From assembly GCA_049999805.1 (NCBI GenBank), contig JBNGIO010006255.1:47400-111399 (forward strand): 64,000 bases of DNA, read 5' to 3'. A program made the position numbers and the translations under genes. The notes under the pieces are model-generated. The model was not told the origin of the DNA. It saw nothing but the letters and a program-made list of their open reading frames with translations, and did no database searches. Shown here piece by piece: positions 1 through 48,356 of this stretch. Position 1 is the stretch's first letter. Each line of letters opens with the position of its first letter. This DNA comes from Folioceros fuciformis (Eukaryota).

Positions 1-1703
1 GAGTGGGGCTGGTGGGGGTGAACGGCGCGGGCAAGACGACGCAGCTCAGGATCATCGCGGGGCAGGAGGAGGTGGACGCTGGGGAGGTGATCAAGGCCAG
101 GGAGGACATGCGGATCGCCTTCCTCACGCAGGAGTTCGAGGTGGTGGCAAGCAGGACGGTGAGGGAGGAGTTTCTGCATGCGTTCGAGCAGGAGATGCAG
201 ATTTCAGGGAGGATGGAGAAAGTGCAGCGCAGCCTGGAGGCGGCCACGGAGGACATGGAGCTCATGGGGAGGCTGCTGGACGAGCTGGACCGGCTGCAGA
301 AGATGGCGGAGGCGGCGGATGTGTACGACGTGGATGTTAAGATTAATAAGATGATGCCGGAGCTGGGGTTTTCGGCGGAGGACGGGGATAGGTTGGTGGC
401 GTAGAATAGTGGCGGCTTACTGCCGAGGATGTCGTTGGGGAAGATTTTGCTGCAGGACCCGGATCTGCTACTGCTGGATGAGCCCACGAATCATCTGGAT
501 TTGGAGACGATAGAGTGGCTGGAGGGGTACCTGAAGGGTTTGGATGTGCCCATGGTGATTGTCTCGCATGACAGGGCGTTTTTGGATCAGTTGTGCAACA
601 AGATTGTGGAGACGGATCTCGGGGTGTCTCAGACCTTTGAGGGGAATTACAGCGCCTATGTGGCGGCCAAAGCTGCTTGGGTGGAGACGCAGAGGATGGC
701 ATGGGAGAAGCAGCAGAGGGAGATTTCCAGGACGGAGGATTTGATACAGCGGCTGTCGGGGGGAGCGAACACCGGGCGTGCTGCATCTGCGGAGAAGCAG
801 CTGGAGAAGATGCTGCAGGATGGGCAGGCTGTGGAAAAACCGTTCGAGCGTAAGCAGTTCAAGTTCAGGTTTCCGGATTTGGGGCGGAGCGGGAGAACTG
901 TCGTGCAGATGACCAATATGGCGTTTGAGTATGATGGGAATGTATTGTTTGATAACGCCAATCTTTTGATCGAGAGGGGAGAGAAGCTGGCCATCATCGG
1001 GCCCAATGGGTGCGGGAAGAGCACCTTGTTGAGAATTATCATGGGGTATGAGCAGCCCACGCTTGGGGAGATCACCATGGGGCAACATCGGATTGTTCCC
1101 AATTATTTCGAGCAAAATCAGGCGGAGGCTTTGGACTTGGACAAGACGGTGCTGCAGGTGGTCGAGGAGGCGGCCGAAGACTGGAGCCTCAATGATATCA
1201 AGGGGTTGCTGGGCCGATGTAACTTCAAGGCAGATATGACCCATAGAAAGGTGGCTTTTCTGAGTGGGGGGGAGAAGGCTCGCTTGGCCTTTTGTAAGTT
1301 CATGGTGACACCGTCCACTCTGCTGGTTTTGGATGAGCCTACTAATCATCTTGACATCCCTTCCAAGGAGATGTTGGAGGAAGCTTTGAGGGACTACCCG
1401 GGCACGGTGATCGCTGTATCGCATGACCGATATTTTCTCCGCCAAATCGTGACTCGAGTTATTGAAGTGAAGAACAAGCGGCTGGAGGACTATGCTGGCG
1501 ATTTCAACTACTACTTAGCTCAGAATCTGGAAGCCAGGAGGAAGCAGCTGGAGCGAGAGGCCGAGTTCGAGGCCAACGCCCCGACAGTGAAAGCCAAATC
1601 AAAGATGACTAAAGCTGAAAAGGAGCTTCAGAAGAAACAGAAGGCCCAGTCATTTCAGCAAAAAAACCAGAAGAAAACCTTCAACAACAAGAGATGGAAT
1701 TGA
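1..1703 (+). CDS. ABCF5: ABCF-family (EttA-like) ABC ATPase, ABCF5-like; 5'-truncated by the window; in-frame TAG at 402-404 (disrupted allele or sequence error)
   Basis: Two ABC domains: Walker A GVNGAGKT and GPNGCGKS, Walker B LLLLDEPTNHLD twice, second signature LSGGE, no TM helices. ORFs 3-404 and 429-1703 are in the same frame. Confidence 0.85.
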
Positions 1704-13528: not shown

Positions 13529-14103
13529 CTATTTCGGGTTTAATCCACAAATCTTGTTGTATCCCCTTTTATAAGTTCTCTTACTAAAGGTTCATATTTT
13601 ATATATATTTTTGGTACTTAACATTCTTATGTCCCTTTGATGATGAGTTTCCTAGCTTGGAATCTATATGAGACATGGGTTTTAAAGTACTTAGACATGG
13701 CTATGAAATATGCTTTTAGGGAAGTAGAATTGAATATGGCAATTAGACATGCTTTGAGGGTACTTAGAAAAGAAACACCAAGGGTAGTGCTAGTATAAAA
13801 GGGGCTTATCCTCAAGTTATTTCTTAGTTGTGATTTGAAGTAGCAAGAAGCACTCGAGGTACTAGTTGTACACCAAGGTGTATTAATTTCACCAAATCGT
13901 TTAGCTACACAACAAGGCATATTATTTTCAAAAAATTTACCCTTTATAGTAAAGGTAAATCAGTATGTTTTGATATCATTGATTGGAGCTATGTATTAAA
14001 AATAAATAATTTACAAATTTCACAGTACTAGAGTAGGTATAGTTTGATTTTGTTATTGATGCATGAATTCTAATATATGTAGCTTTGGATCTCTATTGCA
14101 CAG

Positions 14104-15537
14104 ATGAAGAGAATATTATCCCTTAACATGGTATCTAGCGTTCTTTTTACGATCATATGCATCTTATTGGCGGTAACGGTACAAGGAGCTCATAATCATA
14201 GGTATAATGGATCCTTGTATTCGTTTGGTGATTCCTTGGCCGATGTAGGTAACAATAATCATTTGCACTTGAGAGCAAGTGCGAAAGCAAATTACTACCC
14301 ATATGGTCGGGAATTCGACACGAAGAAGGCAACAGGCCGCTTCAGCAACGGCCGTGTCTTGATGGACTATTTTGCAATCCAACTTGGATATGAAAAGTTC
14401 CCTCAACCCTATCTATATCACGCACCACACGCTGTGACGAATGAGGGCGTGAGTTTTGCTTCTGGTAAATCAGGATTGTTGCACGGTACTGGAAGACAAT
14501 ATGGACATGTTATACCATTCCATCGTCAGGTGCAATTGTTCCAACGAAGATTGGTGCCACGTCTTGCTAATCATCTTGAGCAACAGGGTGTCAAACACGT
14601 GAAACATCATGTTGCTAGACACTTGGCGTATTCGTTGTTTTATATTGACGTCGGTACTGATGACTTCACACAAAGAATTGTTGCCCATCGGAACATTTCT
14701 TCTAAACTACTTCACATAACTCTCATTAAGAGGATGGAGGTGAACATCAACAAGTTGTATGAGCAAGGAGCAAGGAAGTTCATCATAGCTGATGTTGGAT
14801 CTTTGGGTTGCTCACCGTTGGTTATTCATGCTACTAATTCGTCGGGATGCAACAAAGTTATTAATAAGCATATTCATGCTTATAACATGAAGATGAATCA
14901 ACATCTTCATAAACATTTTAGCAGCAAACTTCAAGATGCTCGATATGTTTTTCTTCCAACTCTTCACTCAAATAATGAGATTATTCAACACCCCGCTAAG
15001 TATGGATTTGAACATTCTGTTGACGCATGTTGCGGGGATGGAAACACTCCTTGTGGAACTCATGTCCAACATTGTGAAAATTCCAAGACTTTTATTTGGT
15101 GGGATCCATATCATTTCGTGTCTGATGTTTTTCAGACTATGGCAGCATGGTATTTTAGGGGGTCGGCACCCACTACTTTGCAAGGTTCTGGTAGCATACA
15201 AGGCTTGTGCAACGCCACTGTCTCGTACAATTGGGATATTACAATCAGCAATGGATCCAGTTCTAGTAGTTCTAGTAGTTCTAGCAGTTCTAGCAGTTCT
15301 AGCAGTTCTAATGGTTCTAATGGTTCTAGCAATTCGATGCCATTTGTGTATGAGCCCACCACCTCCTATGATTCTTCCCCGCCGCAATCAAGTTCTACTT
15401 ATACACCTGAGCCGTATCAGTGTGGTGGCAGTTCAAGCGGTAGCTATGATGATGAATACTCTTACTCTTATGCTCCTGGTGCTGCACCCTACTATTCAGA
15501 TGGTTGCACCAACGACCTTATCATCAATTCGAGTTAA
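14104..15537 (+). CDS. Secreted GDSL esterase/lipase-like protein, intronless, with Ser/Tyr-rich C-terminal extension
   Basis: Signal peptide; FGDSLADVGNN, PYG..TGRFSNGR, LYEQGARKF, GCSP, ACCG, WWDPYH. Confidence 0.92.
   Translation: MKRILSLNMVSSVLFTIICILLAVTVQGAHNHRYNGSLYSFGDSLADVGNNNHLHLRASAKANYYPYGREFDTKKATGRFSNGRVLMDYFAIQLGYEKFPQPYLYHAPHAVTNEGVSFASGKSGLLHGTGRQYGHVIPFHRQVQLFQRRLVPRLANHLEQQGVKHVKHHVARHLAYSLFYIDVGTDDFTQRIVAHRNISSKLLHITLIKRMEVNINKLYEQGARKFIIADVGSLGCSPLVIHATNSSGCNKVINKHIHAYNMKMNQHLHKHFSSKLQDARYVFLPTLHSNNEIIQHPAKYGFEHSVDACCGDGNTPCGTHVQHCENSKTFIWWDPYHFVSDVFQTMAAWYFRGSAPTTLQGSGSIQGLCNATVSYNWDITISNGSSSSSSSSSSSSSSSSSSNGSNGSSNSMPFVYEPTTSYDSSPPQSSSTYTPEPYQCGGSSSGSYDDEYSYSYAPGAAPYYSDGCTNDLIINSS
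15259..15330 (+). repeat. 9-bp tandem repeat x8 encoding poly-Ser/GSN
   Basis: agttctagt, agttctagc and ggttctaat units. Confidence 0.9.
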
Positions 15538-21519: not shown

Positions 21520-21925
21520 GCAGATGGTGTTGGACGGACTTGGTCAGAAAGATGTGATGGCATGGAATTCATGGCCTGACTACATGGTATTCCAAACAGG
21601 ACATCTAATAGGGCAGAAAGCTCTTCGTCTCTACAGTGGTGTGCGAGAAAGAGGCACCGCTGTTCCCAATCCTGCGACGTTTTGTGTCCCTCCTGCAGGC
21701 AAGAGCCAGTCTGGGCGAGTCAGTCTGGGAATGCCAGCTCTGGGGATGCAGAGCAGCTTCATGGATAGGTGAAAGAACGAGGATATCAAGCTGATGGGCC
21801 TGTTGGTCGCAAAGTATGGCAGCTTGGAAGATTCTCACAGAGTGTTTGATGGACTTGCTCAAACAGATGTGACGGGTGGGCTGCTGTGATAGCAGGGTAC
21901 TCCCAGCAGCGACTGAGCCTGGTAG
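21520..21925 (+). pseudogene. Decayed PLS-class PPR gene fragment
   Basis: VLDGLGQKDVMAWNS..GQKALRLYSGVRERGTAVPNPATF; AEQLHG*VKERGYQAD; AKYGSLEDSHRVFDGLAQTDV/WAAVIAGYSQQ, with a stop codon and frameshifts. Confidence 0.75.
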
Positions 21926-24270: not shown

Positions 24271-25107
24271 GCTGAATCCCTCCTACGCTTAGATTCAAAT
24301 ACGTCCAAGCGCTCCTCAAATCTGCTCTCGAGCTTTGATCCTTTCAACGCAAATCTACACTACAGAGAGCTACACGCAGAAACTCGAATAGAATCCAAGT
24401 CACAGGCAGATTAACCAGGTGCGAGCTCAGGTCTGGGAAATCTGACGCGGGACAGCAGATCTAAGCAATTGCTCACACTGATGCGAGGGGAAAGACCAGA
24501 CGTAACGAGACGAAATGTGTTTTGCTTGTTGGCTGCGAGATGACGAGCGATGACAATTTATGATACACAGACCAAAGGAAAAGTTGTGTAATTGACGATA
24601 TGTATCTTAAATTTCAAAAACATATGAAGAGGGTCTACCATTATTGGACGATCCGCAGCAAATGCGGCCCTAGCAGAAAAATGCCCTACCTACGTACGTA
24701 TGAGCGCTAGACCAGTAATCCAGCTCTTCTTCACTTAACGTAGTCCGGCTTTAGAGGGCCGACATTCAAGCCAACAGCAAACCCCAAGAAGACAAGCAAA
24801 CAGAGCAAGCACGCAGCAGGAGGCCGGTGCCTCTAGTGCTGTTTCGTCGCTGCTTGTGGTTCAAGCTCTGGATCTACAAGGAGAGCGACACGATTGAAAC
24901 TGAGAGGGCGCTGCGTGCCAAGAAACATGCTGGTTGCAGTTGGTGCTGTAGTACAGTTGCTTGCCAGAAAACAGCTGTGAAAACATGAATCAGACATTAG
25001 CTCCGTAACCAAAGCCACCAGCAAGCGCGCTTGTTCACCGAAATGACTTTGCCTTCAGATTTCACACAAAAGCTCTATAGCTTGGGGGCCAAACTCCATG
25101 GAACGAC

Positions 25108-25752
25108 GAGCATTTTGCCTCCCGTGGGAGGGAAGCATACCAAGTACATAATCTTGGAAGAGGAATTGCAGGCAGACTACCAGCTGGATGTTAGAATGGC
25201 CAATCCCATGTTGCTCGGAGTGTAGATCGAAGCTGGATAGAGACATGAGATGTTGGAATGCAGTACCTTCTCCTACTGGCCTGCAGCAGAGCCAGGGCCT
25301 TGGTCCGCTCTGCAACGTGCTTCCAACGACTCACGCGGCATTGCTGTAGCAAGCAAGCCTCATATGGCTTTCATCGTTTCCTTTGCTTGCTTCTCGGCAA
25401 ACTCCGATCCTTTCCGGCATCCACATCTTACGCTTCCGGTCTCGGATGTTGCCGTCGTTAGGGCGAGGTGGAAGCTCGTCCGCACCGAGTGCAATCGAAG
25501 CATACGATCCATTCCTCTTCCTTGGCAAGGCTCTGTAGGCGTGACTCCGTTGCTTGAACCGAACCACAGACATGCCGGCCCCGACACGATGTTGCTCTGA
25601 AACCATGGTTGCAGTTGGGAACAAGAGCGGCTCCGAGGTCCGCACAGCAAACCGACGAAAACTCCCGACTGAGAATCTCGGCAGCGTGGTACGATCGGTG
25701 CACGCTATGCACGTCCAAGGGGAAGAAGCGGTGCGTCTGCCACAGGGCTGAG
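25108..25752 (-). pseudogene. Degenerate duplicate of the mL87-like gene (copy of ~18070-18724)
   Basis: Colinear nucleotide similarity (e.g. tactggcctgcagcagagcc..ccttgg.ccgctctgca); KRNGSYASI..RPNDGNIRDRK; frameshifts and no start codon. Confidence 0.85.
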
Positions 25753-25798
25753 TCTCTTCAAGTTGAAGCGACAGTCCCCGGAAGCGGAACAAGCTGCG

Positions 25799-26572
25799 AT
25801 GGCGGAGGCGGTCTTGTGTAGGTTTCACGGGGGGCCTGCTGCCACGGTGGCGCTCAGGCCGGGGCGGGCGCAGGGGCTGCGGGCGAGAAGGGGCCATGGG
25901 GCGCGGGTGTCCTGTGCGCGGGGGAGCAGGCGGCCTCCCAGCGCGCTCTTCACGGGGATCGTGGAGGAGATGGGGCGGGTAAAGGAGGTGCGGGAGATGG
26001 ACACCGGGGGTTTCCAGATGACGGTGGAGGCGGCGCTGGTGCTTGAGGACGTGAAGCTCGGGGACAGCATCAGCGTGAACGGCACCTGCTTGACGGTCAC
26101 CGCCTTCACTCCGGAGTCCTTCTGCGTGGGCCTGGCGCCCGAAACGCTCCGGCGGACCTCGCTCGGAGAGGCGTTGCCCGGGGCGGCAGTGAATCTGGAG
26201 CGCTCGTTGCAGCCGAGTTCCCGGATGGGAGGCCACTTCGTGCAGGGCCATGTGGACGGCACCGGCACCATCGTGTCCTTCGATCCCGAGGGGGACTCGC
26301 TGTGGGTCAAGGTGAAGGCCGCTCAGGAGCTGCTGCGCTACATCGTGCCCAAGGGGTACATTGCTGTGGACGGCACCAGCCTCACCGTGGTGAATGTGCT
26401 GGATGACGAGAGCGCCTTCACCTTCATGCTCGTGGCCTACACGCAGCAGAAGATCGTTATTCCCAGCAAGAAGGTTGGTGACAAGGTGAACTTGGAGGTG
26501 GACATTGTCGGGAAGTATGTGGAGCGTATGATGCAAGGATACAATGCTGCTCCGTTCCCTGTCCCAGCTTGA
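25799..26572 (+). CDS. ribC: Riboflavin synthase (alpha chain), plastid-targeted, intronless
   Basis: LFTGIVEEMG, GDSISVNGTCLTV, VNLERS, GGHFVQGHVDG, KGYIAVDGTSLTV, VNLEVD. Confidence 0.96.
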   Translation: MAEAVLCRFHGGPAATVALRPGRAQGLRARRGHGARVSCARGSRRPPSALFTGIVEEMGRVKEVREMDTGGFQMTVEAALVLEDVKLGDSISVNGTCLTVTAFTPESFCVGLAPETLRRTSLGEALPGAAVNLERSLQPSSRMGGHFVQGHVDGTGTIVSFDPEGDSLWVKVKAAQELLRYIVPKGYIAVDGTSLTVVNVLDDESAFTFMLVAYTQQKIVIPSKKVGDKVNLEVDIVGKYVERMMQGYNAAPFPVPA

Positions 26573-27359
26573 GGACTTCCTCGTTCTTCAGTACGTGCAG
26601 CAGCAGATTCAGGTCACGCTCGTCTTCAGAGTTTTCCCATTGTGTATTAAAATGCTAGGACAGCATCAAACAAGCGGCGAGTCCTCTTGTGAGGACATGA
26701 TTCCTTGAGCATCCACGGACCGTCCATGGTAGCATGTGATGTAAGTGACACCAAACAGTGAGTCAGAAAGGTAAAGACACTGAGAAATAAGGACAAGGAG
26801 GTGATGGAACTAGGGCCGATTCTCGAAGGAGGCGAGGTCCAGCATAAAACCAGTGTCACGATAACACATAGTTCGCGAGTCCCGTATGCAAAGTGCTGAA
26901 CAACCTAGTGCGACTACCTACATCTTGAACATACAATGGGCCTCAGACTTCGTCTCGGGAGGACCTCAATCTGTGATTGTCTTGTCGGCAAGTTGATGTA
27001 ACTGTTGTACAGAGGCAAGGTGCTGGAAGCAAGCTTAGCTGCTTGGCACAGACCTCAGCGGAGTTCTACGCTTCGCAGCCCAATACCTGAAGCAACCTGG
27101 CCAGTTACATCAGACAGAGCTCACCAGATTTTTGTGCTCAGTGACAACTCACTATCTAATACTGCCTAGTAAAAGGGCAACAACGACACACAATCAGCCT
27201 GTCCTAAGAATTCTCATTCGAGAAAAATACGTTTCAAAATTTTGATCCGCAATGCACAAAGCCTCACAAGTATCCGCAACAAATAATCCTTCTCAGACTC
27301 TCCTGTCAGGAATGTCAAAACCGAGTTAGCAAATTAGGGTTACGCATCAGTGAGCATCG

Positions 27360-27944
27360 CTAGATGGCCAGGTACCGCTTGGACAATTGCTTGCCAGCAG
27401 CAAGAGCCCCCGCCACTACGCCTCCCAGCGCGCCTGCAATGGCGGCCGTGCGAGGACCGGCAGTAGCCTTATAAAGCGCCCCGGTACCAAGTCCTGCAAC
27501 TGCGCTGTTCAGAATGTCGTCACTGTTCCGGAAATGACACGCAGCGCTCTCCATGCCGGCATAGAAGAAGCCTAGAATGCCTAGCGTGTTGCCGTAGCTC
27601 TTCCCTCTCTGCCCGGAGGCATTCAACACCCGATTCACCCGCAGCTTGGCCGTGTCCCCTGCCTCTGTAGATCGCAAGCCCTCGACCAGCCCCTTTGCGC
27701 CCCCGGCAACAGCGCCCGACAGGTACCCGACTCCCGTGTAATACGTCAAGTTGTCACTCCAACTCCGCCTCTTCACCGCGGCTTCCTCCGTGAACAGCAG
27801 CTCCGGTGTGGTAGGGAGCCGAAAAATCGTGTCAAGTGACCTCGCATCCACGGGCCCATATAGATCTGCGTAGGGGTTATACAGGCGAGTGCCGCTGCCA
27901 CCGCTGTCCCCTACAAACCCGCCGTCGTGCTCGGCATCCTCCAT
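27360..27944 (-). CDS. TIM23: Mitochondrial inner-membrane translocase TIM23, intronless
   Basis: RLYNPY..LPTTPELLF.EE..RRSWSDNLTYYTG, KLRVNRVLNASG, GxxxG-rich TM segments. Confidence 0.92.
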   Translation of the reverse strand: MEDAEHDGGFVGDSGGSGTRLYNPYADLYGPVDARSLDTIFRLPTTPELLFTEEAAVKRRSWSDNLTYYTGVGYLSGAVAGGAKGLVEGLRSTEAGDTAKLRVNRVLNASGQRGKSYGNTLGILGFFYAGMESAACHFRNSDDILNSAVAGLGTGALYKATAGPRTAAIAGALGGVVAGALAAGKQLSKRYLAI

Positions 27945-29145
27945 CTGGCCAGTCCTTCCTTCCTATGTCCACTGCGCACTCAGAGCTGCAACACGAATCC
28001 CTTCGCCACGCGCAGAACACACCAACTTTCCTGGCATCCGTCGGTCTCCCTGTGCGTGTGGTCTCCTGTGGCCTGCAATAACGGCGCAGATTTAACCAGG
28101 GCTACAGAGGAGCAATCGGTCCGGGAGAATTGTGCGTTTATATTCCGGGATCTTCTTTCCTCGAGCCAGGATTGACAAGTACGCAACGCTTACAGCCTAG
28201 GTCCGTTTATTCACCTGAATCAAAGGCGTCACCGAGGATCTAAAGCTCTAGACTGTTTATTCCAGTGACTCTAACTGTCTCTACTATTCTGGCCGGCGAA
28301 TTCATAGTTCTGACGGACGCTAACTCATGCCACCTCGCTCTCTGCCTCTCAGACCTATGCTCGACAATGCAGTTTGTAAGTTCCTCACGGTAAAGCGGAC
28401 ATGAGAAACAGGGGACCACTGGGTGGAAATCTATGGCTCCATCGGAGCAAACGGAGTCCGTGCTGCAACCCCGTGGAGGAATGGTGCAGGCGTTTATCAA
28501 GTCTTCGGGCCTCGGGGGAGCACAGCAATGGTGAAAGCGAGGGATTGGAAGTCGAGCCTTCTAGTTACCTAGCTGACGGTGATTTTGTTCTGGGGCAAGC
28601 AATTGTTGGGGTTTTGGGGGGATGGAAACATAATCTCTTATGCTGGATTGCAGATGAGCCAGTAACTGGGCAGGCTTTGCCGGTGGTTTCTCATCGCTAC
28701 TACTCCAGAACAAGGTTCCAGCAGGTAGGGTGGATGGTTATTCGCTGATGCCTCTGCTGTCCGCTTTTGGGGTTTGACAGGGTGAGGAGGGTAATGACTG
28801 GCAGGCATTCCTTGGTGGGCAGTTTGCAGCTGACCATGAGTAATCGCCACAGACAGACCCCAAGTACGTGGATTTCGTCCACAGCACATTGAGGGAGCGC
28901 GACGGCTGGCGGCTCGACCCCTGCTGGAACCCTGCTTGGGTCATCTCAGAAGATGCCGCCACACTCCAGCAAGGTCAACATGTGGCGGTTGGGAGTGAAG
29001 CTTACTTGGGGCTGGATCCAGTCAGGTACCTCTCTCCCTCGTTCAGGGGCTTCTGGGCTGTGGTCACAAGACAGGCTGGGTCTGATAAAAGAAATGTGGG
29101 GAAACCTGCAGAGTTGAGAACAGTGAAGATTGCATTGAATTATGG

Positions 29146-31230
29146 ATGAAATGGTGGGAGGATGGAGGGGTCGCTGGGGCCTGTCAGGTGTCGGAGGCCA
29201 CGACCCGGCGAGTGTTTGTTGCGAGGGAAATACTGTACCATATGTTGAAAGGATGCATGGCAAGACACGATCTGTTTCTTGGGAGGCGCATTCATGCTCT
29301 CGCTGTAAGTAGCGGGTACGGGACTGACTCCGTTTTTGCAAACCAGCTTATCCGGATGTATACTTCTCATGGGAGTTTGGGAGAAGCAAGCCAGGTGTTC
29401 GACAATCTCCCTGCTCCCAATCAATTTGTGTGGGCTTCTATTATCGGAGCACATGCTGAGCTGGGTGAAGCTAAGGAAGCAGTAAGGCTGTATGAGCGGA
29501 TGAAGCAGACAGGTGTGGAGCCAAATCAGTACATTCTTGTAGCAGTGCTGCAGGCATGTGCGGGAGCAGGGGATTTGTCGGCTGGCAAGTGGGTTCACGC
29601 TGACGTGATGGACAGCGGATTGGAATCGAACTTGTTTGTGGGAAGTACTTTGGTGGACATGTATGCCAAATGTGGGAGCTTGCAGGATGCTCGAAGGGTT
29701 TTTGATGGACTGTCTACGAGAAATGTCGTGACTTGGAGTGCAATCATAACAGCATATGCGCAGCATGGGCTTGGCCAGGAAGCCTTGGATCTGTACAAAC
29801 AAATGCAGCAAGATGGCATAGCGGCAGCTAACCGCGTCACTTTTCTCGGAATTTTGAAAGCTTGTAGTAAAGTTGGGGCCATCCACGAGGCGAAGCAGAT
29901 CCACTCAGAGATTTTAGGAAGGGGTCTTGAGGCAGATGTATTTATAGGAAGCTGCCTGGTGGACATGTATGCGAAATGTGGGAGCCTTGATGATGCACGG
30001 AGAGTCTTTGACAGACTCTCGACCAGAAATCTCGTCACATGGAATGCCATGGTTGCAGGTTATGCTACGCAAGGACTCGGTCAAGAGGCTCTCAAATTGT
30101 ACCTGCAGATGGAGCAGAATGGGCTGTTGCTCCCAAACGAAGTTACTTTTGTGAGCATTCTTAAAGCATGTAGCGGTATTGGGGCCATACAGCAGGGCAA
30201 GAGGATTCACTCGCAGATTCTGGAAAGGGGATTGGAAGCTGATATGTTTGTGGGAAGCACCTTGGTGGACATGTACGGTAAATGTGGGGAACTGGAGGAT
30301 GCTCGCAACGTTTTTGAAAACGTGTCATCCAAAAACGTAGTCACATGGAATGCGCTCATCAATGCTTACGGCCAGCACAACGAGTGTGGAATGGCCATCC
30401 AGTGCTTTGAGGAGATGAAGCGTGCTGGTGTTGTTCCAGATGCGTCGACATTTGTTGGTCTGCTTATGGCCTGTAGTCATGTAGGTTGGGTACCAGAGGG
30501 CCAACGGTACTTCGCTCTCATGACTCAAGAACATAGGATACGGCCTGAGATTGAGCATTACACCTGCATGGTTGATCTCCTAGCTCGGGCAGGGCACCTG
30601 GCTGAAGCAGAACGCATGTTGCAGACGGAGCCTCATACGCATGACACGGTTGGGTGGATATCTCTCCTTCATGCGTGCAAGATGTTTGGCAACGTGGATC
30701 TGGGCAAGCGTTGCTTCGACCGCCTTGTTGAACTAGATCCGCGACATTCCTCAGGATACACGATTATGTCTAACATCTACACAGATGCCGGAAGGTGGGC
30801 TGATGCCGAATCCATCAAGAGTTTGAGAAAAAGCGCAGGTGCAGAGAAAAAGGCTGCAAGAGCCTTCATCGAAGTGAACTACAGGGTGCACGAGTTTGTA
30901 GTAGGACAGGAGCGTGGAGACACGGTTGCCAAGCTTACAAGTCTGAACTGCCAAACGAAGGAGGAGAAAACAGATCATGCAGAGTCCACTGGCACAGAGG
31001 ACGAAGGGGCCCTGTGCGGACATGCTGAGAAACTGGCGTTGGCCTTTGGCCTCCTCAACACACCCGAGGGAACAACCCTTCTGGTGGTCAAGAATCTGCG
31101 AATGTGCAATCACTGCCACTCCGGCACCAAGCTGTTGTCTAGGGTAGAAAAACGAGAGATCATCGTCAGAGATGCACACCGGGTTCATCGCTTCACGAAT
31201 GGAGTGTGCTCTTGCCGGGACCACCGATGA
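29146..31230 (+). CDS. PLS-class PPR protein (14 PPR motifs, E1, E2) with a DYW:KP-type deaminase domain; possible upstream exons from 28401
   Basis: L-S-(P-L-S)x3-P2-L2-S2-E1-E2; KKAARAFIEV in place of the PG box; HAEKLA (31021); CNHC (31105-31116); ends CSCRDHR. Confidence 0.95.
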   Translation: MKWWEDGGVAGACQVSEATTRRVFVAREILYHMLKGCMARHDLFLGRRIHALAVSSGYGTDSVFANQLIRMYTSHGSLGEASQVFDNLPAPNQFVWASIIGAHAELGEAKEAVRLYERMKQTGVEPNQYILVAVLQACAGAGDLSAGKWVHADVMDSGLESNLFVGSTLVDMYAKCGSLQDARRVFDGLSTRNVVTWSAIITAYAQHGLGQEALDLYKQMQQDGIAAANRVTFLGILKACSKVGAIHEAKQIHSEILGRGLEADVFIGSCLVDMYAKCGSLDDARRVFDRLSTRNLVTWNAMVAGYATQGLGQEALKLYLQMEQNGLLLPNEVTFVSILKACSGIGAIQQGKRIHSQILERGLEADMFVGSTLVDMYGKCGELEDARNVFENVSSKNVVTWNALINAYGQHNECGMAIQCFEEMKRAGVVPDASTFVGLLMACSHVGWVPEGQRYFALMTQEHRIRPEIEHYTCMVDLLARAGHLAEAERMLQTEPHTHDTVGWISLLHACKMFGNVDLGKRCFDRLVELDPRHSSGYTIMSNIYTDAGRWADAESIKSLRKSAGAEKKAARAFIEVNYRVHEFVVGQERGDTVAKLTSLNCQTKEEKTDHAESTGTEDEGALCGHAEKLALAFGLLNTPEGTTLLVVKNLRMCNHCHSGTKLLSRVEKREIIVRDAHRVHRFTNGVCSCRDHR

Positions 31231-31443
31231 GAGAAGAGTTGAGTAGTGACATGAGATGATTTGTTCACAGTAGTTCCCACCCTTTCACAATGGCCTTGTG
31301 ATCAACGTTACGCAAGTGAATTCCCTCTTCATCAGCTAGCCTGGCTAACCAGAAAACCGGCGCTCATAAAGGACCATCTGGACCGTTTTAATACGAATGA
31401 TTACGAAGGCTCCGAACGCCGGAGAGACAGAAGTAAGGTGAAA

Positions 31444-32273
31444 ATGTTGGGAGCGGAATCGATTTGCAACACAGGGTTTCTCGTGTGCAACGCTGTTACC
31501 GTGTGCCTGCCGTCAGGTACTTGCAGACTCCGCGGTCTGCAACTGCAGGAATGGAACGCTTTCGGTGGCTGCAGGCTGAAACCTTGTCGCAGCCCTCAGG
31601 AGCTGATCGGCAAGACGGCTTCCAGTTGCGCTGTGCCAAGAGCGGGGCCTTTTGATGGGGTTAGGGCAAGAGAACAGGAGGAGCAGCGGACACCAGAAGT
31701 TGGTGCCAACTTCCAATCTGGTGCGTGCTTCGTTGGTGTGATACACAGTAGCAGCAGAGGCCAACTTCTTCTCGAGCTGCTGCAATTGTTTGCTCCTTGG
31801 ATTGCAGAAGCAAGGGATCAGGCCGAACAACTCTGGCGACTGCTTTTCTCCAATCCGTCGCAATGGTGGGATGACAGGAACAAGAAGGTAAGTTGATCAC
31901 CAGTTCGGAATTGTGTGAACCTCCAGCTCCTGCAGTGTAAAATTAGGTTTTACTATGAATTCATGGAGGAATATGGTTTTGCCTTCAGAGATACCCAAGT
32001 GACCCCGATTTTGTGAAAAAAGGCACCAAAGAGAGGCTGTGGATCGACGGTAATGTTCCTGATTGGGTGCGGGCAGAGTTAGCGAAGTTGCCGGCTCCAG
32101 CTAGGCCACCGCCGAACGTGAGGCAGGTGTACTCACCGCCCTCTAACACAGATATGCACAGGCCAGGCGGTCGCATGGGACCCTCGCGTTACAGGCCGCC
32201 GGTCTCCGAGGCTGTGCAAGCCGATAGGGAAAGACGAGCAAGGGAAATTCTTGAAGGCATTGGCTGGGAGTGA
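31444..32273 (+). CDS. Protein with a single OSB-type PDF motif and no visible OB-fold; intron 31888-31988
   Basis: LWRLLFSNPSQWWDDRNKK|RYPSDPDFVKKGTKERLWIDGNVPDWVRAEL joined in frame across aag|gtaagt..ttcag. Confidence 0.8.
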
Positions 32274-32885
32274 CGATGACAACTCCTTTGAGGTGGGCAG
32301 AACCATTGCTCTTTTGAAGTTACACAAGTTACAGCTTCTCATTTAAGTTAAGGTTGTTCAAAAATTCGAGGTCGCACAAATTATGTACAATCCGGCACTT
32401 TTTCCAAGGAGAAACAAGTCTATCAAATTTCAAGCAGCTAGCTACGGGAAAGGATGCCACCCAGACCTGGGAAGGGAGGGTACACAGATTTGCCAGCAAT
32501 GTCACCTAAAAAATGCATCCGCCTGCATTTCATAATTCTCCTAGTGGAAATCCAAACCATCTGCATCGCAAAAGTTCTATTGAGGTTATGCAGGTTTAAT
32601 GGAAACCGAGTACCAGCGAGCTGCTGCAATTCCAAAGCAAGAGACTCCTGCTCGGCGAACATCTAGAAATGTCCCCGCAGGTAATTCTGAGATCTCTGAC
32701 CACAAGAGGACCCCAACGAGAACTTACCAACGAGACCACAACGAACTTCTGATGACTAAAGCAGCTACAGCAGCCACGAAGGGAAGTTGGACATCCTCAA
32801 AACTTGCTGCATGAGTTACATGGACCACCAATGTCCACAGTTGTCCCGAGTCAAATTTCTTGCACAGCTGCCTGCTCAACATCAT

Positions 32886-35800
32886 CTAGTCGTAGCTCCG
32901 TCTTACGGGTAGACCCCTCTTTCCGGGATAATCGTCGCTGCCATCATTCCAGTCACGAGCATCATGCACTAATGCTCCTTCGTGACGTCCAAAAGACGCA
33001 GACCTGCTTGGATCATTCGACCCGGACCCATAGCTTCCCGACTTCACGGTGCCAGGGCCATTGTTTAACCTATCACCGCCAAAGATGCCGCCAGAGGGCG
33101 CAAATACATCACGACCCTGAGATGGTTGAGATGGTGCTGGGCCCTCTGCGAGGCGAGAAAAGGGAGCATCCTTAGGTGATGCACCGTATGGTCCGGCACT
33201 TCCATTTAAATAACTACTGCCCAACACCTGGACAGGGCTTCTTGCAAGAGGGCTGAGAGCAGATCGTTGGTTCATACTTCCACGCGCAGCTCCACCAATC
33301 GCAGATCCCAACGAGGATGATCTGGAAAAAGCTTGAGCAAGATCCGCAGCTGATACAGGAGCAGTGTGACCAAACTTACCAGGAGTTGTTGCAGGAACAG
33401 GATCCACTGATGCAGAAGCTGTTGCCGGGTTCCTGGCACCCATTGAAGGAGAAGATGGGGCTGGGGGGTCAGCAGGGCGCCGCCAGCTGTCCTGCTTGTT
33501 GATGTCCCGACTTCTCTCTTGCTTTTCTATGTCTCGACGGCTCTCTGCCCTGTCCTGTTCACGCCGATTATCAAACCTATCTGCATCCCGCCGAACATTT
33601 TCTTCCTTCCGACCATCCTTCCTATATGGACTATTGTCCTTCCTGTCCGACTCCCTGCGGACATCCTGCCTGTTCACAGCAATCCACAACATGTTTGTTG
33701 GACATCAAACCCCACTTACTCCATCAACTTGTCATTCTAGAGGCTACAACAAGGAAAAGAAATCGCTGACCTTGCACCAGGCGTCACATTAGGCTCAAGG
33801 CCAATTATGAGAGCATCGTCTCCACCACGCTCCTTCAATATCTGCAAGGCAGGCCACCGCATGGCCCAATGAGCACCTTTTCTTTTTCACCAAATTGCCG
33901 TATCTTGAAAATTATTAGGTTCTACTCAAAACATACAGCATGACTAGCTGATGCTAAACCACCAGTAGCAACTTACAAGTTCACGAGGGCGAGCACCACC
34001 GAAGACTGTATTCCTGTGTGCAGATACGATTGCCAACCTTCAGACCACAAATGTGGTAACTCTGCTGATTCACCCACAGCATAAAACGTGAATTTAACTG
34101 CACTAACTATCCCTACCTGACCTTCCCCGGGCCATCCTCAACGGCAGGCTCAGTAACCTTGGATCGAGGCTTCAAATTTAGCCTGGGCCGCCCAGCCAGA
34201 CGACTTGAATCATCACCATTCTCAGACGCCTGATAACCGGCAGCCACACTTGAATCGCTTGCCCCACTATCCACAGGTTCTGCAAGGGGTATTTGCTCAA
34301 CTAATCGCTTCTCCGAAACTATCAGCCGACTTTCCTTCACAGTCTCCTACACATGCCACAAGATTTCTAATCCATAAAGGGCTAGTCCAACCACAGCCCC
34401 TAAATCAAATAAATGTACATGCATTCCACTAAGCTTGAAAAGCTCAAAGCCTTGAAGCTCACCTCATGAATAATAGCTTCCACTGGTGGCTCCAACACTT
34501 TCTCTAACGGCTTAGAACGAGGTAGAAGTTTGAGTTTCGGTCTTTCCGCTTGTTCAGGTCGAGCAGCAGCCGTAGCAGTAGTAGTCTGGATGGGGTCTGC
34601 TGGTAGAGCTGGAGCAGCTATCGGAGCTCTCGAACTTTCAGTCTGCGATGCAAGCACATCTGGCGAACGAATTCGACCATAGGAGCTTCCATTGCGCTCC
34701 CGATCAGCACCATAAACCCCTCTGCTGCCATCAACATAGCCTCCTTTGTCTCTATCTCCTCCATAAGGAAGTCGTGAACTTTCGGAAATGTGTGCCCCTC
34801 GGTTAGCATTAGGCATGTAGTTGTCCCGAGGAGGCTCTGGAACATACGCATGCCGTCCACCTTCAGCGTTGTCTGGCACATAGGAGTCAGGGTAACCGCC
34901 CCGTTCCGCATAGGCACCGCGCCCATATCCACCCCTTCCACTATCACTATAAGGAACCCGATCAGGAAACCCAACCCCCCTGCCCAGTTCACCGTTATTC
35001 ACAACCTCACCATAGCCACCCCTGCTGCCGTCCACGTACATGGGCCTACCCGAATCGAATCCAATTCTTCCTGCCTCAGGGTAAGCCCTACTATCCAGGT
35101 AAGCACCTCTCTCAGGCTCTACAGCTCTCTCAGGATCGTTGTAGCCAGCACCAGCAGCCCACCTATTATCCTCCATATAACCACGACGGACCTCGTTGGG
35201 ATAAGATGCACGAGCTGCCTCAGCACCAAAACCAACTCGACCTTGGTCCACGTAATGCACACGATTGTCCCCACGATCCCTGGCAGGCTCGTGGTATGGT
35301 CCCCTGCCTGCATCCGGGTATCCACGAACATCTGCTTCGGGGTAGTCCCCACGGTTCCCATCACCTAAGCCCCTACCCCTACCTTCACCATACCTCATAC
35401 CCCTTCCAGAATCGCTGTAACTTACTCTTCCACCGTCAGGGTAAGGACCACGACCTGGATCAGACAGATACCCAGGCTGGCCCGTTTCTGCAGAAGGATG
35501 TCCCCCCGCCTGAAACTGTGCAACATCTGGATTGAATGCCGGACGTCCACCATCTGATACGTAGCCTGAGCCGTAAGCATTTGGCCTCACGGATGCCTCC
35601 TTGGGCTGTTCAGGCAGGGGCCTCCTATCCCCAGGCCACCGAGTTGGTGCCCCCTTGTCCACCATACCTGCGTCCACTGGTCTTTGATGCCTCCAAGGAG
35701 AAGAAGGGGTATTGTCATTTCCTGCACCATCACCCGGCAGAACCCTATATTCACCCTCTCGTCGGGCAGTCCATACATTAGGCGCTGGATCTGAACCGCC

Positions 35801-36663
35801 CCTTGGGGCCGCCACCGGTGCCACCGGTACCACCGGCTGCTGCGCTCCAGCTCTCCAACCGCGCGGAGGTGGAGAGGACGCATGCTGAGCCACAAAAGGA
35901 GGCCCAGACATATTCTGCGAGTGTTTTCCAAACGCGGCCTGCTCGGACGGAGCCGAGGAGTGGGTGTCCTGGGGACGAACCTGCAGCTTCTCCGAGGTGA
36001 GCTGCGTCTCTCGCTCGGGCAGACGTGGAGCAATGAGGCCAAACTCGTCGTGCACGTAGTTATCCGACTCACCCTGTCGGGGCGGCTGGGTCCTTGAGAA
36101 TCTGTCATTCGATGGCAAGCCCCGAGCCTCAAATCCACCCTTCTCCTCATTCGAATACCGATCGACAACCTTTTCATACACCGGCCGCCGCTCCTCGTAC
36201 CGATCAAGATCCTCGTACCTGTCCACGCTATGGCTGCTCCGAGGCCGACTGTCCACAGGCTTCCTCTCATCTTCGTCGTAATTGCGGCCGATGTTGGCAG
36301 GATTCGGGAAGTATGACGCTTTCTCCTCGAAGGTCCGGACCCCATTCGGAGCGCCCTGCCTATTGTATCCACCACCACGATCCCCACCAAACCCCCTTCC
36401 CAAGGTGGGGCTCATCCACGGCGCAGAGCTGGGCCTCTCGAAAGCGCTTCGGTCCACGGTCCTGCCACAGGAAACCACAATCAGACACCGGAGCACAGAA
36501 TACAAGAATCCAACAACGGCAACGGAGAAAGCCCTCCGACGATCTAACAAGATCCTACTGCTTACATTCCAGGAGCAGACGGAAGAGGCAGATCCGAGGG
36601 AATGGATCCTCCATGAAAATCCTTGAGAGTCATGGCAGCTCGGGGCATCTTCTTTTTCGACAT
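32886..36663 (-). CDS. Plant eIF4B-like, RG/RGG-rich low-complexity protein, multi-exon
   Basis: N-terminus MSKKK..MTLKDFHGGSIPSDLPLPSAPG; ERPKLKLLPRSKP, RPRLNLKPRS and VFGGARPREL-ILKERG motifs of the plant eIF4B family. Confidence 0.75.
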
Positions 36664-37270
36664 CTTTCCCCTAAATTAGAGGACCGGTGACCTAGACTAC
36701 ACACTACCTAGCCTACACCCGGGAAAAAAACTGATCTGGAACCAAGCGGCAGCCGATCACGCAGTCAGAAAACGACGTGCGGTGAAGATGCGAGAGGGAG
36801 GGTTGGGAAGGGAAGGGAAGGGGATTGCCGAGAGGCCCGCCTCCTGCCGATCTCACACGTGGTCAGCACCTCGGCAGCTCTGCTTCCCCGAACACAACTC
36901 GGCCCCCCGAAATAGAGCAGACATCCAGATCTGTGGAGCAAAAAAAAGCCGGCACCAACCCCACAGCTAGCACGCTGCCAACTCCACCCCAATGCCCCGC
37001 GCCGACACCAGATGCAAGAAGAAAAACACGAGGACAGACCTAGACGCGATACAGCAGCAGGCAAGAGAGCGCAACGGACAGAAACCGGTAAACCTCAACC
37101 AGGAGAAAGAAAGAGGGCGAGCAGGAGGGTGCCCAGCGGGAAGGGAGAGGTGGCCGGGTTGATGGCCGCTGCACCTAAGGTACGTACACAAAAGCCGCTA
37201 TTTTGATTTATGGCCCTGTCACCTGTTGGATATTAGATAGTAAAAAGCAGGAAATGAAGAATTTAGGTAG

Positions 37271-46306: not shown

Positions 46307-48085
46307 TCAGAGTATGCGTCTGAATTTCAGGTAGCTGAACATAGCTATGAAGAGAGCAAAGCCGCCAAATATGATGCCAGAGGTTGTGATCCAGAAAGCC
46401 AGGACATGCTCCTCCAAGTATGACCTCAAGTTCATACCAAAAATGCCTGCGATCAGAGCTCCCAAGGCGGAACAGAATGTGCCCACCTGCAGCAGCAGCT
46501 CCAGACGGCTTACCTCGAGTCTCCTTGAGCTCAAATTAACTGAGATGGAGTCCTCCATCTCCCTTGCAGAATCAAGCAACTTCTGGGCCTGACCATGACA
46601 TGAATCGCACCGCTGGAGGTAGAACTCTAGAAGCATCTCTATCTCTTCTTCCTTGTCTTCCACAGCCTGTTTGTCTAAAATGGCATCGCATTCTACCTGG
46701 CCACTGTCTCGCCGAAAGCTACACTTCATGCCCATGATAGAGATGCGGTGGATTTCCTCCTGGTGCTCCAGGAGTTCCAGTAACATCTGCTGCAAGGACC
46801 CTGCCTTGGAGCTGAGCTCCACCAATGCTTGCTTGCTCAGCCGCAGTTCCTCTAGCACATCAGCTGTGTATCGTGTTGGTAGCACGGCCAACAGAGACTT
46901 CACTCGAGGTTCAACCTCCTGGAGCATGTTCTCAAGTCGTTGGGTCCTAGAAACCAGGGCTGCCTCCACCACTTCCAGCTCGAAGGGCATGGTAGCACCA
47001 GTTCCATCAGCTAACACTCTAGGATATAAAGCTTCCAGAAATGTTCGAGCTCCAACACTGTGCTGATCAAATACCAAAACGTTTTCAGGGGTTGCAATTG
47101 CCCTCAAAGACCCCAAGTTTAGCAATATTGCTCTATCACGAACGAGGATGCCAGGCAAGGAGGTGGTCGACCACAAGGAGGGGTCAATGCGCCTTATGTC
47201 TCTCAGCCTCAGACCGCTACTTCTCAGAAGCTGTCGCCTGCTCACAGTTCGTTGCTCAACCCTCCGTCCTGCAGTCACCTCAAGCACCTCGTACACAGGC
47301 TCCTTGGCTGCTATGGCTATAGATTCAGCGCAAGAAGTGGAGGCAGAGCCAAAGATGGAGCCCTCACTTCTCGAGCTTTCAGCGTCCCATCCATCCTCTG
47401 ACAGGTCATCTCCGTCATCACTCTTCCGCCCCCCTTCGCTTGAGCTCACGAACTCCCCATCCACAACCCATTGCTCAAAGGACTGCTCCAGTGCTTTGTC
47501 CGGATGTGTTCCCAGATCCTCAACTCGTTGTCTGAGAGCTCCGTTCAATTCTCCTTCATGCGTTCCCAACGAAAAGGCTTGCACATGGGAATCAGACTTA
47601 GTAAGACCCGATATCCTCTCGCCCGATTGCTGCTGCTGCTGCACCACTCTTGACCCACTCAAGAGAGGTTCTCCTTCACAACCATCTCCAGACTCTCCAC
47701 CTCTTCTGGTACCAGCAGCCACCACACGCGGCTTTCTGTAACCGGCGCCATAGGACTGATCCTCCCCAGCAAGGAACGCAGACCAAGCTCCTGACAAGGT
47801 CAAGCACTTCCCCAGCACCTTCACCCTCTCCCTGCAAAGAAGCAGGGCACACACTGCAGAAATTTCACAAGAGGTCCACCCAGAACCCCGCTTGTGAGCG
47901 TGGCACGTCTTCTGCAACGTATCCCTATTCCCGCCACCAAAACCCCGTGACAAGCCATCGCAACCGGCCTGCGTGATGCCACACAGGCTAGAATCCGCTG
48001 CCTCAAAGCTGGCTGCCTGAACGCGAACTGGAGCCAAGGCAAACGACCTGGGCCTGACAGCGCACATTGCAGGACTCCAAGCCAT
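46307..48085 (-). CDS. MRS2-11: CorA/MRS2 magnesium transporter, plastid MRS2-11/MGT10-like (the N-terminal part may contain an intron)
   Basis: SRRQLLRSSGLRLRDIRRIDPSL, MPFELEVVEAAL, EIEMLLE, GIFGMNL and two C-terminal TM helices. Confidence 0.92.
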   Translation of the reverse strand: MAWSPAMCAVRPRSFALAPVRVQAASFEAADSSLCGITQAGCDGLSRGFGGGNRDTLQKTCHAHKRGSGWTSCEISAVCALLLCRERVKVLGKCLTLSGAWSAFLAGEDQSYGAGYRKPRVVAAGTRRGGESGDGCEGEPLLSGSRVVQQQQQSGERISGLTKSDSHVQAFSLGTHEGELNGALRQRVEDLGTHPDKALEQSFEQWVVDGEFVSSSEGGRKSDDGDDLSEDGWDAESSRSEGSIFGSASTSCAESIAIAAKEPVYEVLEVTAGRRVEQRTVSRRQLLRSSGLRLRDIRRIDPSLWSTTSLPGILVRDRAILLNLGSLRAIATPENVLVFDQHSVGARTFLEALYPRVLADGTGATMPFELEVVEAALVSRTQRLENMLQEVEPRVKSLLAVLPTRYTADVLEELRLSKQALVELSSKAGSLQQMLLELLEHQEEIHRISIMGMKCSFRRDSGQVECDAILDKQAVEDKEEEIEMLLEFYLQRCDSCHGQAQKLLDSAREMEDSISVNLSSRRLEVSRLELLLQVGTFCSALGALIAGIFGMNLRSYLEEHVLAFWITTSGIIFGGFALFIAMFSYLKFRRIL

Positions 48086-48356
48086 CTTCGCTGCCCTGGC
48101 AAGATGGCAGGTGCATCTCTGTGGTCACCAGATGGATTGCCCCTTTACAGCTTAAGTGACATCACGCGCAACAACGCCCCGTCAAGCCCGCCTGACACCC
48201 GGAGCGGAGAGAACCACATAAGCTTTTACCCTGCTCCCGCTTTTCCTTTCCCTACTCAATTTTAGCACGTCTCTGTCCAGATGTAGCAAGCCACTGGGTA
48301 CTCGATTCTCGATTCATCGCAGCACGTTTCGACCTTGCAATCCCGAGCCATGCAGC

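Follow-up and report, generated by a model that had tools for sequence, protein, structure and literature searches.

The gene described here occupies positions 29146-31230 on the plus strand of a 64,000-nucleotide stretch of contig JBNGIO010006255.1 from Folioceros fuciformis (the window, numbered from its first letter). It is probably an intact nuclear gene for a PLS-class pentatricopeptide repeat (PPR) RNA-editing factor, whose C-terminal DYW domain is of the hornwort-type KP class and would convert U to C. The evidence comprises the class of this domain, its intact catalytic and zinc-binding residues, an uninterrupted reading frame, spliced contigs over the gene and related copies that preserve the frame; homology points to organellar targeting, a specific target site, catalytic activity and the reverse editing direction. 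Published work is cited by PubMed Central accession.

The DYW:KP deaminase domain comprises the last 127 residues of the protein (residues 568-694, positions 30847-31227), and 30847-31230 is exactly this domain with its stop codon. It was recognized by Pfam (PF14432, E 1.4e-28), by group profiles and by Foldseek, and no second DYW domain was found within the window. With an E motif and PPR repeats 5' of it in the same frame, the match is no coincidence. The features that a sequence-only reading had quoted are all in place in one open frame. The box KKAARAFIEV (30847-30876) stands where other DYW domains have the PG box and keeps the Lys and both Ala residues of the KPAxA pattern, with Ala replacing Pro. 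The gating segment (residues 588-625, 30907-31020) keeps its helix, which is followed by a short acidic loop without a GHVPxTxLVL-like strand; the gating stretch QTKEEKTDHAESTGTEDEGALCGH lies at 30952-31023. HAEKLA (31021-31038) replaces HSEKLA, and its HAE triplet (31021-31029) provides the zinc-binding His626, Ala627 (the KP state) and the catalytic Glu628. The string KNLRMCNHCH (31090-31119) contains Lys649, the equivalent of Lys88 in the designer protein KP6, Met653 (again the KP state), the zinc ligands Cys654 and Cys657, His656 and His658; the CxxC motif within CNHCH (31105-31119) is intact. The C-terminal part (31183-31230) reads VHRF (31183-31194) and CSCRDHR (31207-31227) before the stop codon at 31228-31230, so that Asp692 is kept and the protein ends in His-Arg rather than in the Arg-His of DRH. 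Ligands of the second zinc site are His658, His681, Cys688 and Cys690, and His656 replaces the usual Asp. These residue roles are transferred from PMC11845758, PMC9478123 and PMC7611903.

The domain thus has the family features of DYW deaminases, namely PF14432, HxE(x)nCxxC (HAE and CNHC) and the second zinc site (His658, His681 and CSC). All predicted zinc ligands, the putative catalytic Glu and the Lys required for U-to-C conversion are kept. In an alignment of 42 KP rows, the query retains 21 of 21 invariant columns and, as read by eye, 26 of 27 nearly invariant ones, the exception being Ile for Leu at the third residue. Structure searches and an AlphaFold model, both made with the last 157 residues, agree on the fold. 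Among solved structures, phmmer matched a synthetic PPR-DYW protein solved with RNA (9kfx, 6.5e-40), the OTP86 DYW domain (7o4e, 2.9e-21) and DYW1 (7w86). Foldseek retrieved 9kfx_A (2.4e-16) and 7o4f/7o4e (about 1e-10 to 1e-9), with query-normalized TM-scores of 0.62-0.78. The model shows a DYW fold with a mean predicted local distance difference test score (pLDDT) of 83.

That the domain belongs to the DYW:KP class, as the sequence-only reading had proposed, follows from its nearest relatives, diagnostic columns, profile scores and two trees, which all agree. According to PMC9478123, KP domains, including the DRH and GRP subgroups of hornworts, occur only in lineages with U-to-C editing, in line with the background given in that reading. 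Their features are a KP pair, Ala or Cys after the catalytic His (HAE or HCE) and a variable C-terminal end (PMC11845758), as well as a Met (M92) before the first Cys where PG domains have V95 (PMC9478123). A protein search with residues 570-713 returned 292 proteins. Among the best 120 of the 292, the 31 best full-length matches (49-66% identity) have a KPAxA-like box, HAE and R/K-M-C; their KP position is mostly occupied by Pro, and GDRH or GGRP is a frequent ending. The named proteins among these 31 come from the ferns Adiantum (54%) and Ceratopteris (49%). The next matches are PG proteins of seed plants with PGxS, HSE, RVC and DYW, at 36-46% identity. A profile-free scan of 1.84 billion representatives gave 2335 matches in the same ranking.

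For the column comparison we aligned 255 domains from the searches (171 PG and 84 non-PG), so that the KP and PG groups are drawn from search matches rather than from a curated reference set. After the catalytic His the query has Ala, as does every one of the 42 KP rows; Ser occupies this column throughout the 171 PG rows. Met precedes CxxC in the query and, without exception, in the 42 KP rows, compared with Val in 68% of PG rows; across the alignment HAE is coupled to Met in 45 of 46 HAE rows. Like 93% of KP rows, the query has gaps at the His and Pro of the xHP triplet. At the Gly and Ser of the PG box it has Ala twice, a state seen in 93% and 86% of KP rows, respectively. Of the KP pair the query has the Lys, with Ala in place of the Pro (KKAARA), and the C-terminal triplet is DHR, not DYW. 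Over the ten columns that separate 42 KP from 171 PG rows, the query shows the KP state in eight, another state in one and the PG state in one, Val667, which is a weak column.

Profiles and trees give the same picture. Group profiles built in this analysis, from which the query was excluded, scored 245.1 bits for hornwort-type KP, 199.3 for fern-type KP, 196.9 for the mixed group and 165.4 for PG; after removal of the eight rows nearest to the query, the hornwort-type profile still scored 228.8 bits. A quick IQ-TREE phylogeny comprised 109 rows, namely the 84 non-PG rows in full and a random draw of 25 from the 171 PG rows. The query falls there into a clade of 33 rows (support by the SH-like approximate likelihood-ratio test, SH-aLRT, 94) that contains the DRH rows and the GRP group (97), separate from a fern-type KP clade (99) and a PG clade (99). 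This grouping with DRH- and GRP-ending proteins, which PMC9478123 assigns to hornworts, points to a hornwort origin. Clustering with canonical PG domains, an outcome that the sequence-only reading had named as fatal to its proposal, was not seen. Eight proteins (P0033, P0141, P0130, P0151, P0156, P0126, P0138 and P0143) combine a KPAKA-type box with HSE or HCE and have Val or Met in front of CxxC; their position in this tree, between the KP and PG clades, makes them possible natural intermediates.

It is accordingly extremely improbable that the domain is a canonical DYW:PG cytidine deaminase with a few substitutions. The common deaminase signature is kept, the best solved match (9kfx) is a PG-type synthetic protein and no KP-type chain was among the solved-structure matches, all of which could be read in favor of such a domain. 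However, the score with the PG profile is 80 bits lower than with the KP profile, a branch with 99% support separates the PG clade, and the query lacks the Gly and Ser of the PG box as well as the xHP triplet, the Ser of HSE, the Val of RVC and the DYW end. No PG-class feature tested (PGxSW box, HSE, DYW-like aromatic end) is present in the query, and trees, profiles and diagnostic columns together rule this explanation out.

Within the KP class, the alignment and trees place the domain on the branch of hornwort-type sequences, next to but not within the DRH and GRP subgroups. For a second quick tree the gating columns were removed from 46 KP rows; this tree separates hornwort-type (35 rows) from fern-type domains (11 rows) with a support of 97. 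It unites 20 rows in a crown of DRH and GRP domains (88), with the query outside this crown in an unresolved grade. A nine-row subgroup around the query, with a support of 89 in the 109-row tree, was lost once the gating columns were removed. The nearest named hornwort subgroup is DRH, on which the designer KP1 was mainly based (PMC9478123). With natural DRH proteins the query has HAE, KNLRMC, VRDAHRVHRF and CSC in common, as well as the Asp three residues from the end and the missing xHP triplet. Identity to DRH-ending relatives, to which we apply the subgroup name from PMC9478123, is 54-62% over E2-DYW. In contrast to the DRH subgroup, the query ends in DHR, has a gating segment that is 6-7 residues shorter and lacks the GHVPxTxLVL-like strand, reads CNHCH instead of CxDCH, has Ala for the Pro of the KP pair and lies outside the crown. 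It does not belong to the GRP subgroup either: GRP proteins have Gly for the Asp three residues from the end and Glu for its partner Lys, whereas the query keeps both Asp692 and Lys662. Compared by their published descriptions, the U-to-C designers KP2 and KP3 (hornwort GRP) and KP6 (fern) are of the same class and have the same catalytic set, including the equivalents of Lys88 and M92; the fern-type clade, on the side of KP6, is separate from the query with a support of 97-99. Three protein searches and the scan of representatives yielded no orthologue, with nothing above 66% identity over the domain or above 53% over the whole length. The protein P0384, which is 84% identical over half of the domain, was rejected as an orthologue; it has a full gating segment and a DRH end.

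The coding sequence is a single exon of 694 codons plus the stop. On the plus strand, 29089-31230 is one frame from stop to stop without an internal stop codon; translation of the spliced leader places a stop of the PPR frame in the second leader exon, and the next in-frame ATG is at 29146. The encoded protein consists of 26 residues, an L1-S1 pair, three P1-L1-S1 triplets, a P2-L2-S2 triplet, E1, E2 and the 127-residue DYW domain. Its 14 PPR motifs span 29224-30645 (Pfam PPR families, 1e-63), followed by the E1 motif at 30646-30747 (Pfam E_motif, PF20431, 4.4e-16; delimited by motif boundaries) and the E2 motif at 30748-30846 (likewise from motif boundaries). The gene is preceded by an intron-bearing 5' leader (28351-29145) with exons at about 28351-28720, from 28819-22 to 29022-25 and from 29109-12 onward. 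The joined leader contains an upstream open reading frame (ORF) of about 116 codons, starting at 28398, without a Pfam match.

Contigs of four public sequencing runs were aligned to positions 25000-36000. In one run, X1, 99% of the words sampled from the gene are present. Two spliced joints with GT..AG ends, from 28720 to 28819 and from 29022 to 29109, occur in its contig record 2 and lead us to read the X1 contigs as transcript-derived. The three pieces of this record (28351-28720, 28819-29022 and 29109-29680) match without a differing letter, as does record 3 over 29956-31719; the repeat-rich PPR stretch 29681-29955 is unbridged by the X1 pieces listed. Three further organisms (B, C and D) have contigs on the gene at 91-94% identity (6-9% differing letters) with the same leader joints. 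In the pieces that cover the coding sequence of B and D there are no gap letters, save for one in-frame AGG insertion after 30958, which falls inside the gating loop; the same contigs have frequent indels in the flanking untranslated stretches. This difference speaks for a maintained frame and for a short gating loop that is common to these species and not a fault of assembly. Among the 40 of 410 differences listed, the only substitution in the domain is a synonymous A to G change at 31152 (Lys). One contig of the other organisms omits part of the leader, 28537-28818. In all four runs, summed contig depth rises 10- to 1000-fold over 29404-30137 on the plus strand, in the central PPR motifs, where many partial contigs, loose ends and false joints occur; we attribute this rise to cross-matching from the very large family of PPR paralogues in these organisms.

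If the protein is an active editor, its 14 PPR motifs would bind one organellar RNA 5' of the target base, and the E1-E2-DYW module would set this base at the zinc site of His626, Cys654 and Cys657, where Glu628 would serve as catalytic acid/base. Lys649 might then attack C4 of the uridine, so that U becomes C. DYW proteins act on the base four positions 3' of the nucleotide matched by the S2 motif, and the PPR code table relates motif residues to RNA bases. Applying this code to residue 5 and the final residue of the P and S motifs, we predict a motif 5' of the edited base with a pyrimidine at -16, A at -13, -12 and -10, a pyrimidine at -9, A at -7, U at -6 and G at -4.

The sequence-only reading had presented the domain as a natural variant of the KP class. 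Its deviations are real, but none is unique save the exact triplet DHR, and the query is less singular than was implied, since the deviations either fall inside the clade's natural range or are common to several relatives. We counted them over 32 hornwort-type KP rows (query included), 11 fern-type KP rows and 171 PG rows. The Pro of the KP pair is not invariant within the clade: hornwort-type rows have Pro in 26 cases, Ala in 3 (query included), Leu in 2 and Val in 1, and fern-type rows have Pro in 5 and Ala in 2. Hornwort-type C-terminal ends are DRH (10 rows), GRP (4), DHH (2), DHR (the query) and 15 other triplets that occur once each; fern-type ends are varied, and PG ends are mostly DYW-like. 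The gating stretch, measured from the box to the catalytic His, has 56-57 residues in 24 hornwort-type rows and 49-52 in five, and the query has 50, which bears out the description of its gating segment as shortened. In fern-type rows the mode is 57 (8 rows), with two short forms (49 and 54), and the PG length is 60 in 139 of 171 rows. The Asp of CxDCH is kept in 25 hornwort-type rows and replaced by His in five, including the query; it is present in 10 fern-type and 167 PG rows. None of the five short-gated rows or of the five His rows belongs to the crown of DRH and GRP domains, and the gating loops of the short-gated relatives differ freely among themselves. For comparison, most KP domains have 133 residues and PG domains 136, with the xHP triplet missing from the former (PMC9478123), and the query has 127.

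No description of short-gated CxHCH forms turned up in the literature covered, in which no search was aimed at those terms and which did not extend to Gerke 2020 and Gutmann 2020. These two papers reportedly contain the first descriptions of the hornwort KP subgroups.

The shortened segment belongs to what is known from OTP86, a DYW:PG protein, as an autoinhibitory gate. In OTP86 the gating domain extends from H837 to G891; in the closed state S828 and S893 tether K915 to the catalytic Glu, and D922 stabilizes this arrangement (PMC7611903). The query has the same fold, HxE(x)nCxxC motif and second zinc site as OTP86 (7o4e, 7o4f) and 9kfx, but the equivalents of S828 and S893 are Ala, as in KP domains generally, that of D922 is His, the first strand of the beta-finger is gone and the gating segment falls 10 residues short of that in 9kfx. 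These changes may be read as those of a gate-less active enzyme or of a weakened one. The authors of PMC7611903 consider that U-to-C editing may not depend on strong autoinhibition. In our AlphaFold model the gating part consists of a helix and a 12-residue coil without a hairpin, and the pLDDT is below 50 at 30976-30999 (model residues 74-81). A control model of the DRH-type protein P0006, which has a full-length segment, also lacks a hairpin and shows low pLDDT there (blocks at 51 and 56); with the control equally uncertain, the models do not distinguish loss of the beta-finger from a full segment. It is possible, though doubtful, that the hornwort-type KP domains include a natural set in which the gate has been dismantled stepwise, with both serines changed to Ala, Asp changed to His (5 of 32 rows) and the first beta-finger strand deleted or scrambled (5 of 32). 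Provided that they are active, domains of this set would act as smaller KP editors in a constitutively open state, and the gate would be dispensable for the reverse reaction.

Several observations weigh against an active U-to-C editor. The query and its short-gated relatives lack the GHVPxTxLVL-like strand that DRH and GRP rows conserve. Replacing the OTP86 beta-finger (875-890) with three glycines markedly lowered editing, and D922A, at the position where the query has His for the Asp of CxDCH, reduced activity and gave poor solubility (PMC7611903). The classification of X1 and related runs as RNA is a guess by the tool, and no run that holds the gene is recorded as RNA. Only 26 residues precede the first PPR motif and they start acidic; with such a short, partly acidic N-terminus, import into organelles is not evident. 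As for engineered proteins, the statement of the sequence-only reading that KP versions catalyze U-to-C conversion agrees with the designer results in PMC9478123, where three of seven (KP2, KP3 and KP6) convert U to C in bacteria; only these three do so, and KP1, which is mainly based on hornwort DRH proteins, is not among the active ones. The introduction of PMC11845758 states that no natural KP protein has been shown to be active, and the same paper reports that KP6 is also a C-to-U editor.

Loss of the gating beta-finger strand and of the CxDCH Asp raises the alternative that the protein is of KP descent but catalytically weak or dead, acting only as a specificity factor that binds RNA, or drifting as a paralogue. 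Besides the two OTP86 mutants, this explanation would account for the free variation of the gating loop among the five short-gated relatives, as in an unconstrained segment, for the pLDDT below 50 in this loop and for the lack of any known activity on this branch, including that of the mainly DRH-based designer. We nevertheless regard it as unlikely. Zinc ligands, catalytic Glu and Lys are kept, together with 47 of 48 invariant or nearly invariant KP columns; the frame is preserved across the whole coding sequence of organisms B and D at 6-9% nucleotide divergence; the only indel in the gating segment has a length divisible by three; and spliced contigs cover the gene. The short form also occurs in 5 of 32 hornwort-type and 2 of 11 fern-type rows, which suggests that it persists and recurs.

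Another alternative concerns the direction of editing: the protein may be an active editor that converts C to U, or works in both directions, despite its KP-type sequence. In human cells KP6 performs both reactions, a few substitutions shift the balance, and the Lys is conserved in PG domains too (PMC11845758); the discussion in PMC9478123 holds that the HAE/HSE position is not decisive for direction, and the query departs from the KP consensus at several places. Its KP state at eight of the ten discriminating columns and the restriction of the KP class to U-to-C lineages (PMC9478123) argue against this possibility, which we consider rather improbable. Lys88 is essential for U-to-C conversion by the designer KP proteins (PMC11845758, PMC9478123), and its equivalent Lys649 is consistent with the preferred reading, an intact PPR editing factor with U-to-C activity.

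The query adds a natural protein with a shortened regulatory loop to the known KP class and does not represent a novel type of enzyme. According to the 2025 paper PMC11845758, U-to-C enzymes are known only through consensus-designed proteins, and with no natural KP protein shown to work, an intact natural KP gene is a usable test object. For such tests the locus supplies an exon structure, a predicted target motif and related copies. The short gating loop and the His of CxHCH offer a natural experiment on the role of the gate in the reverse reaction, and a domain that is six residues shorter may be of some use to builders of compact editors. Its value is that of a good candidate rather than of a discovery, because the PPR family of these organisms is evidently very large, hornwort KP proteins are already catalogued and each unusual feature is common to several relatives.

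Next to the PPR gene, in head-to-head orientation, is an intact ORF of 200 codons that belongs to the Tim17/Tim22/Tim23 family (27360-27962, minus strand, 6.3e-29). One X1 contig crosses both genes, skipping 28199-28350. X1 record 3 goes on 3' of the PPR gene, skipping 31720-31986 and 33669-34461, and reaches two long minus-strand ORFs (32886-33704 and 34400-36670) without a Pfam match. Other ORFs of the window encode an ABC ATPase with an ABC_tran_Xtn linker (405-1703, plus strand), a GDSL lipase (14083-15537, plus strand) and an MRS2-like magnesium transporter (46307-48124, minus strand), and a weak PPR-like match lies at 21527-21874.

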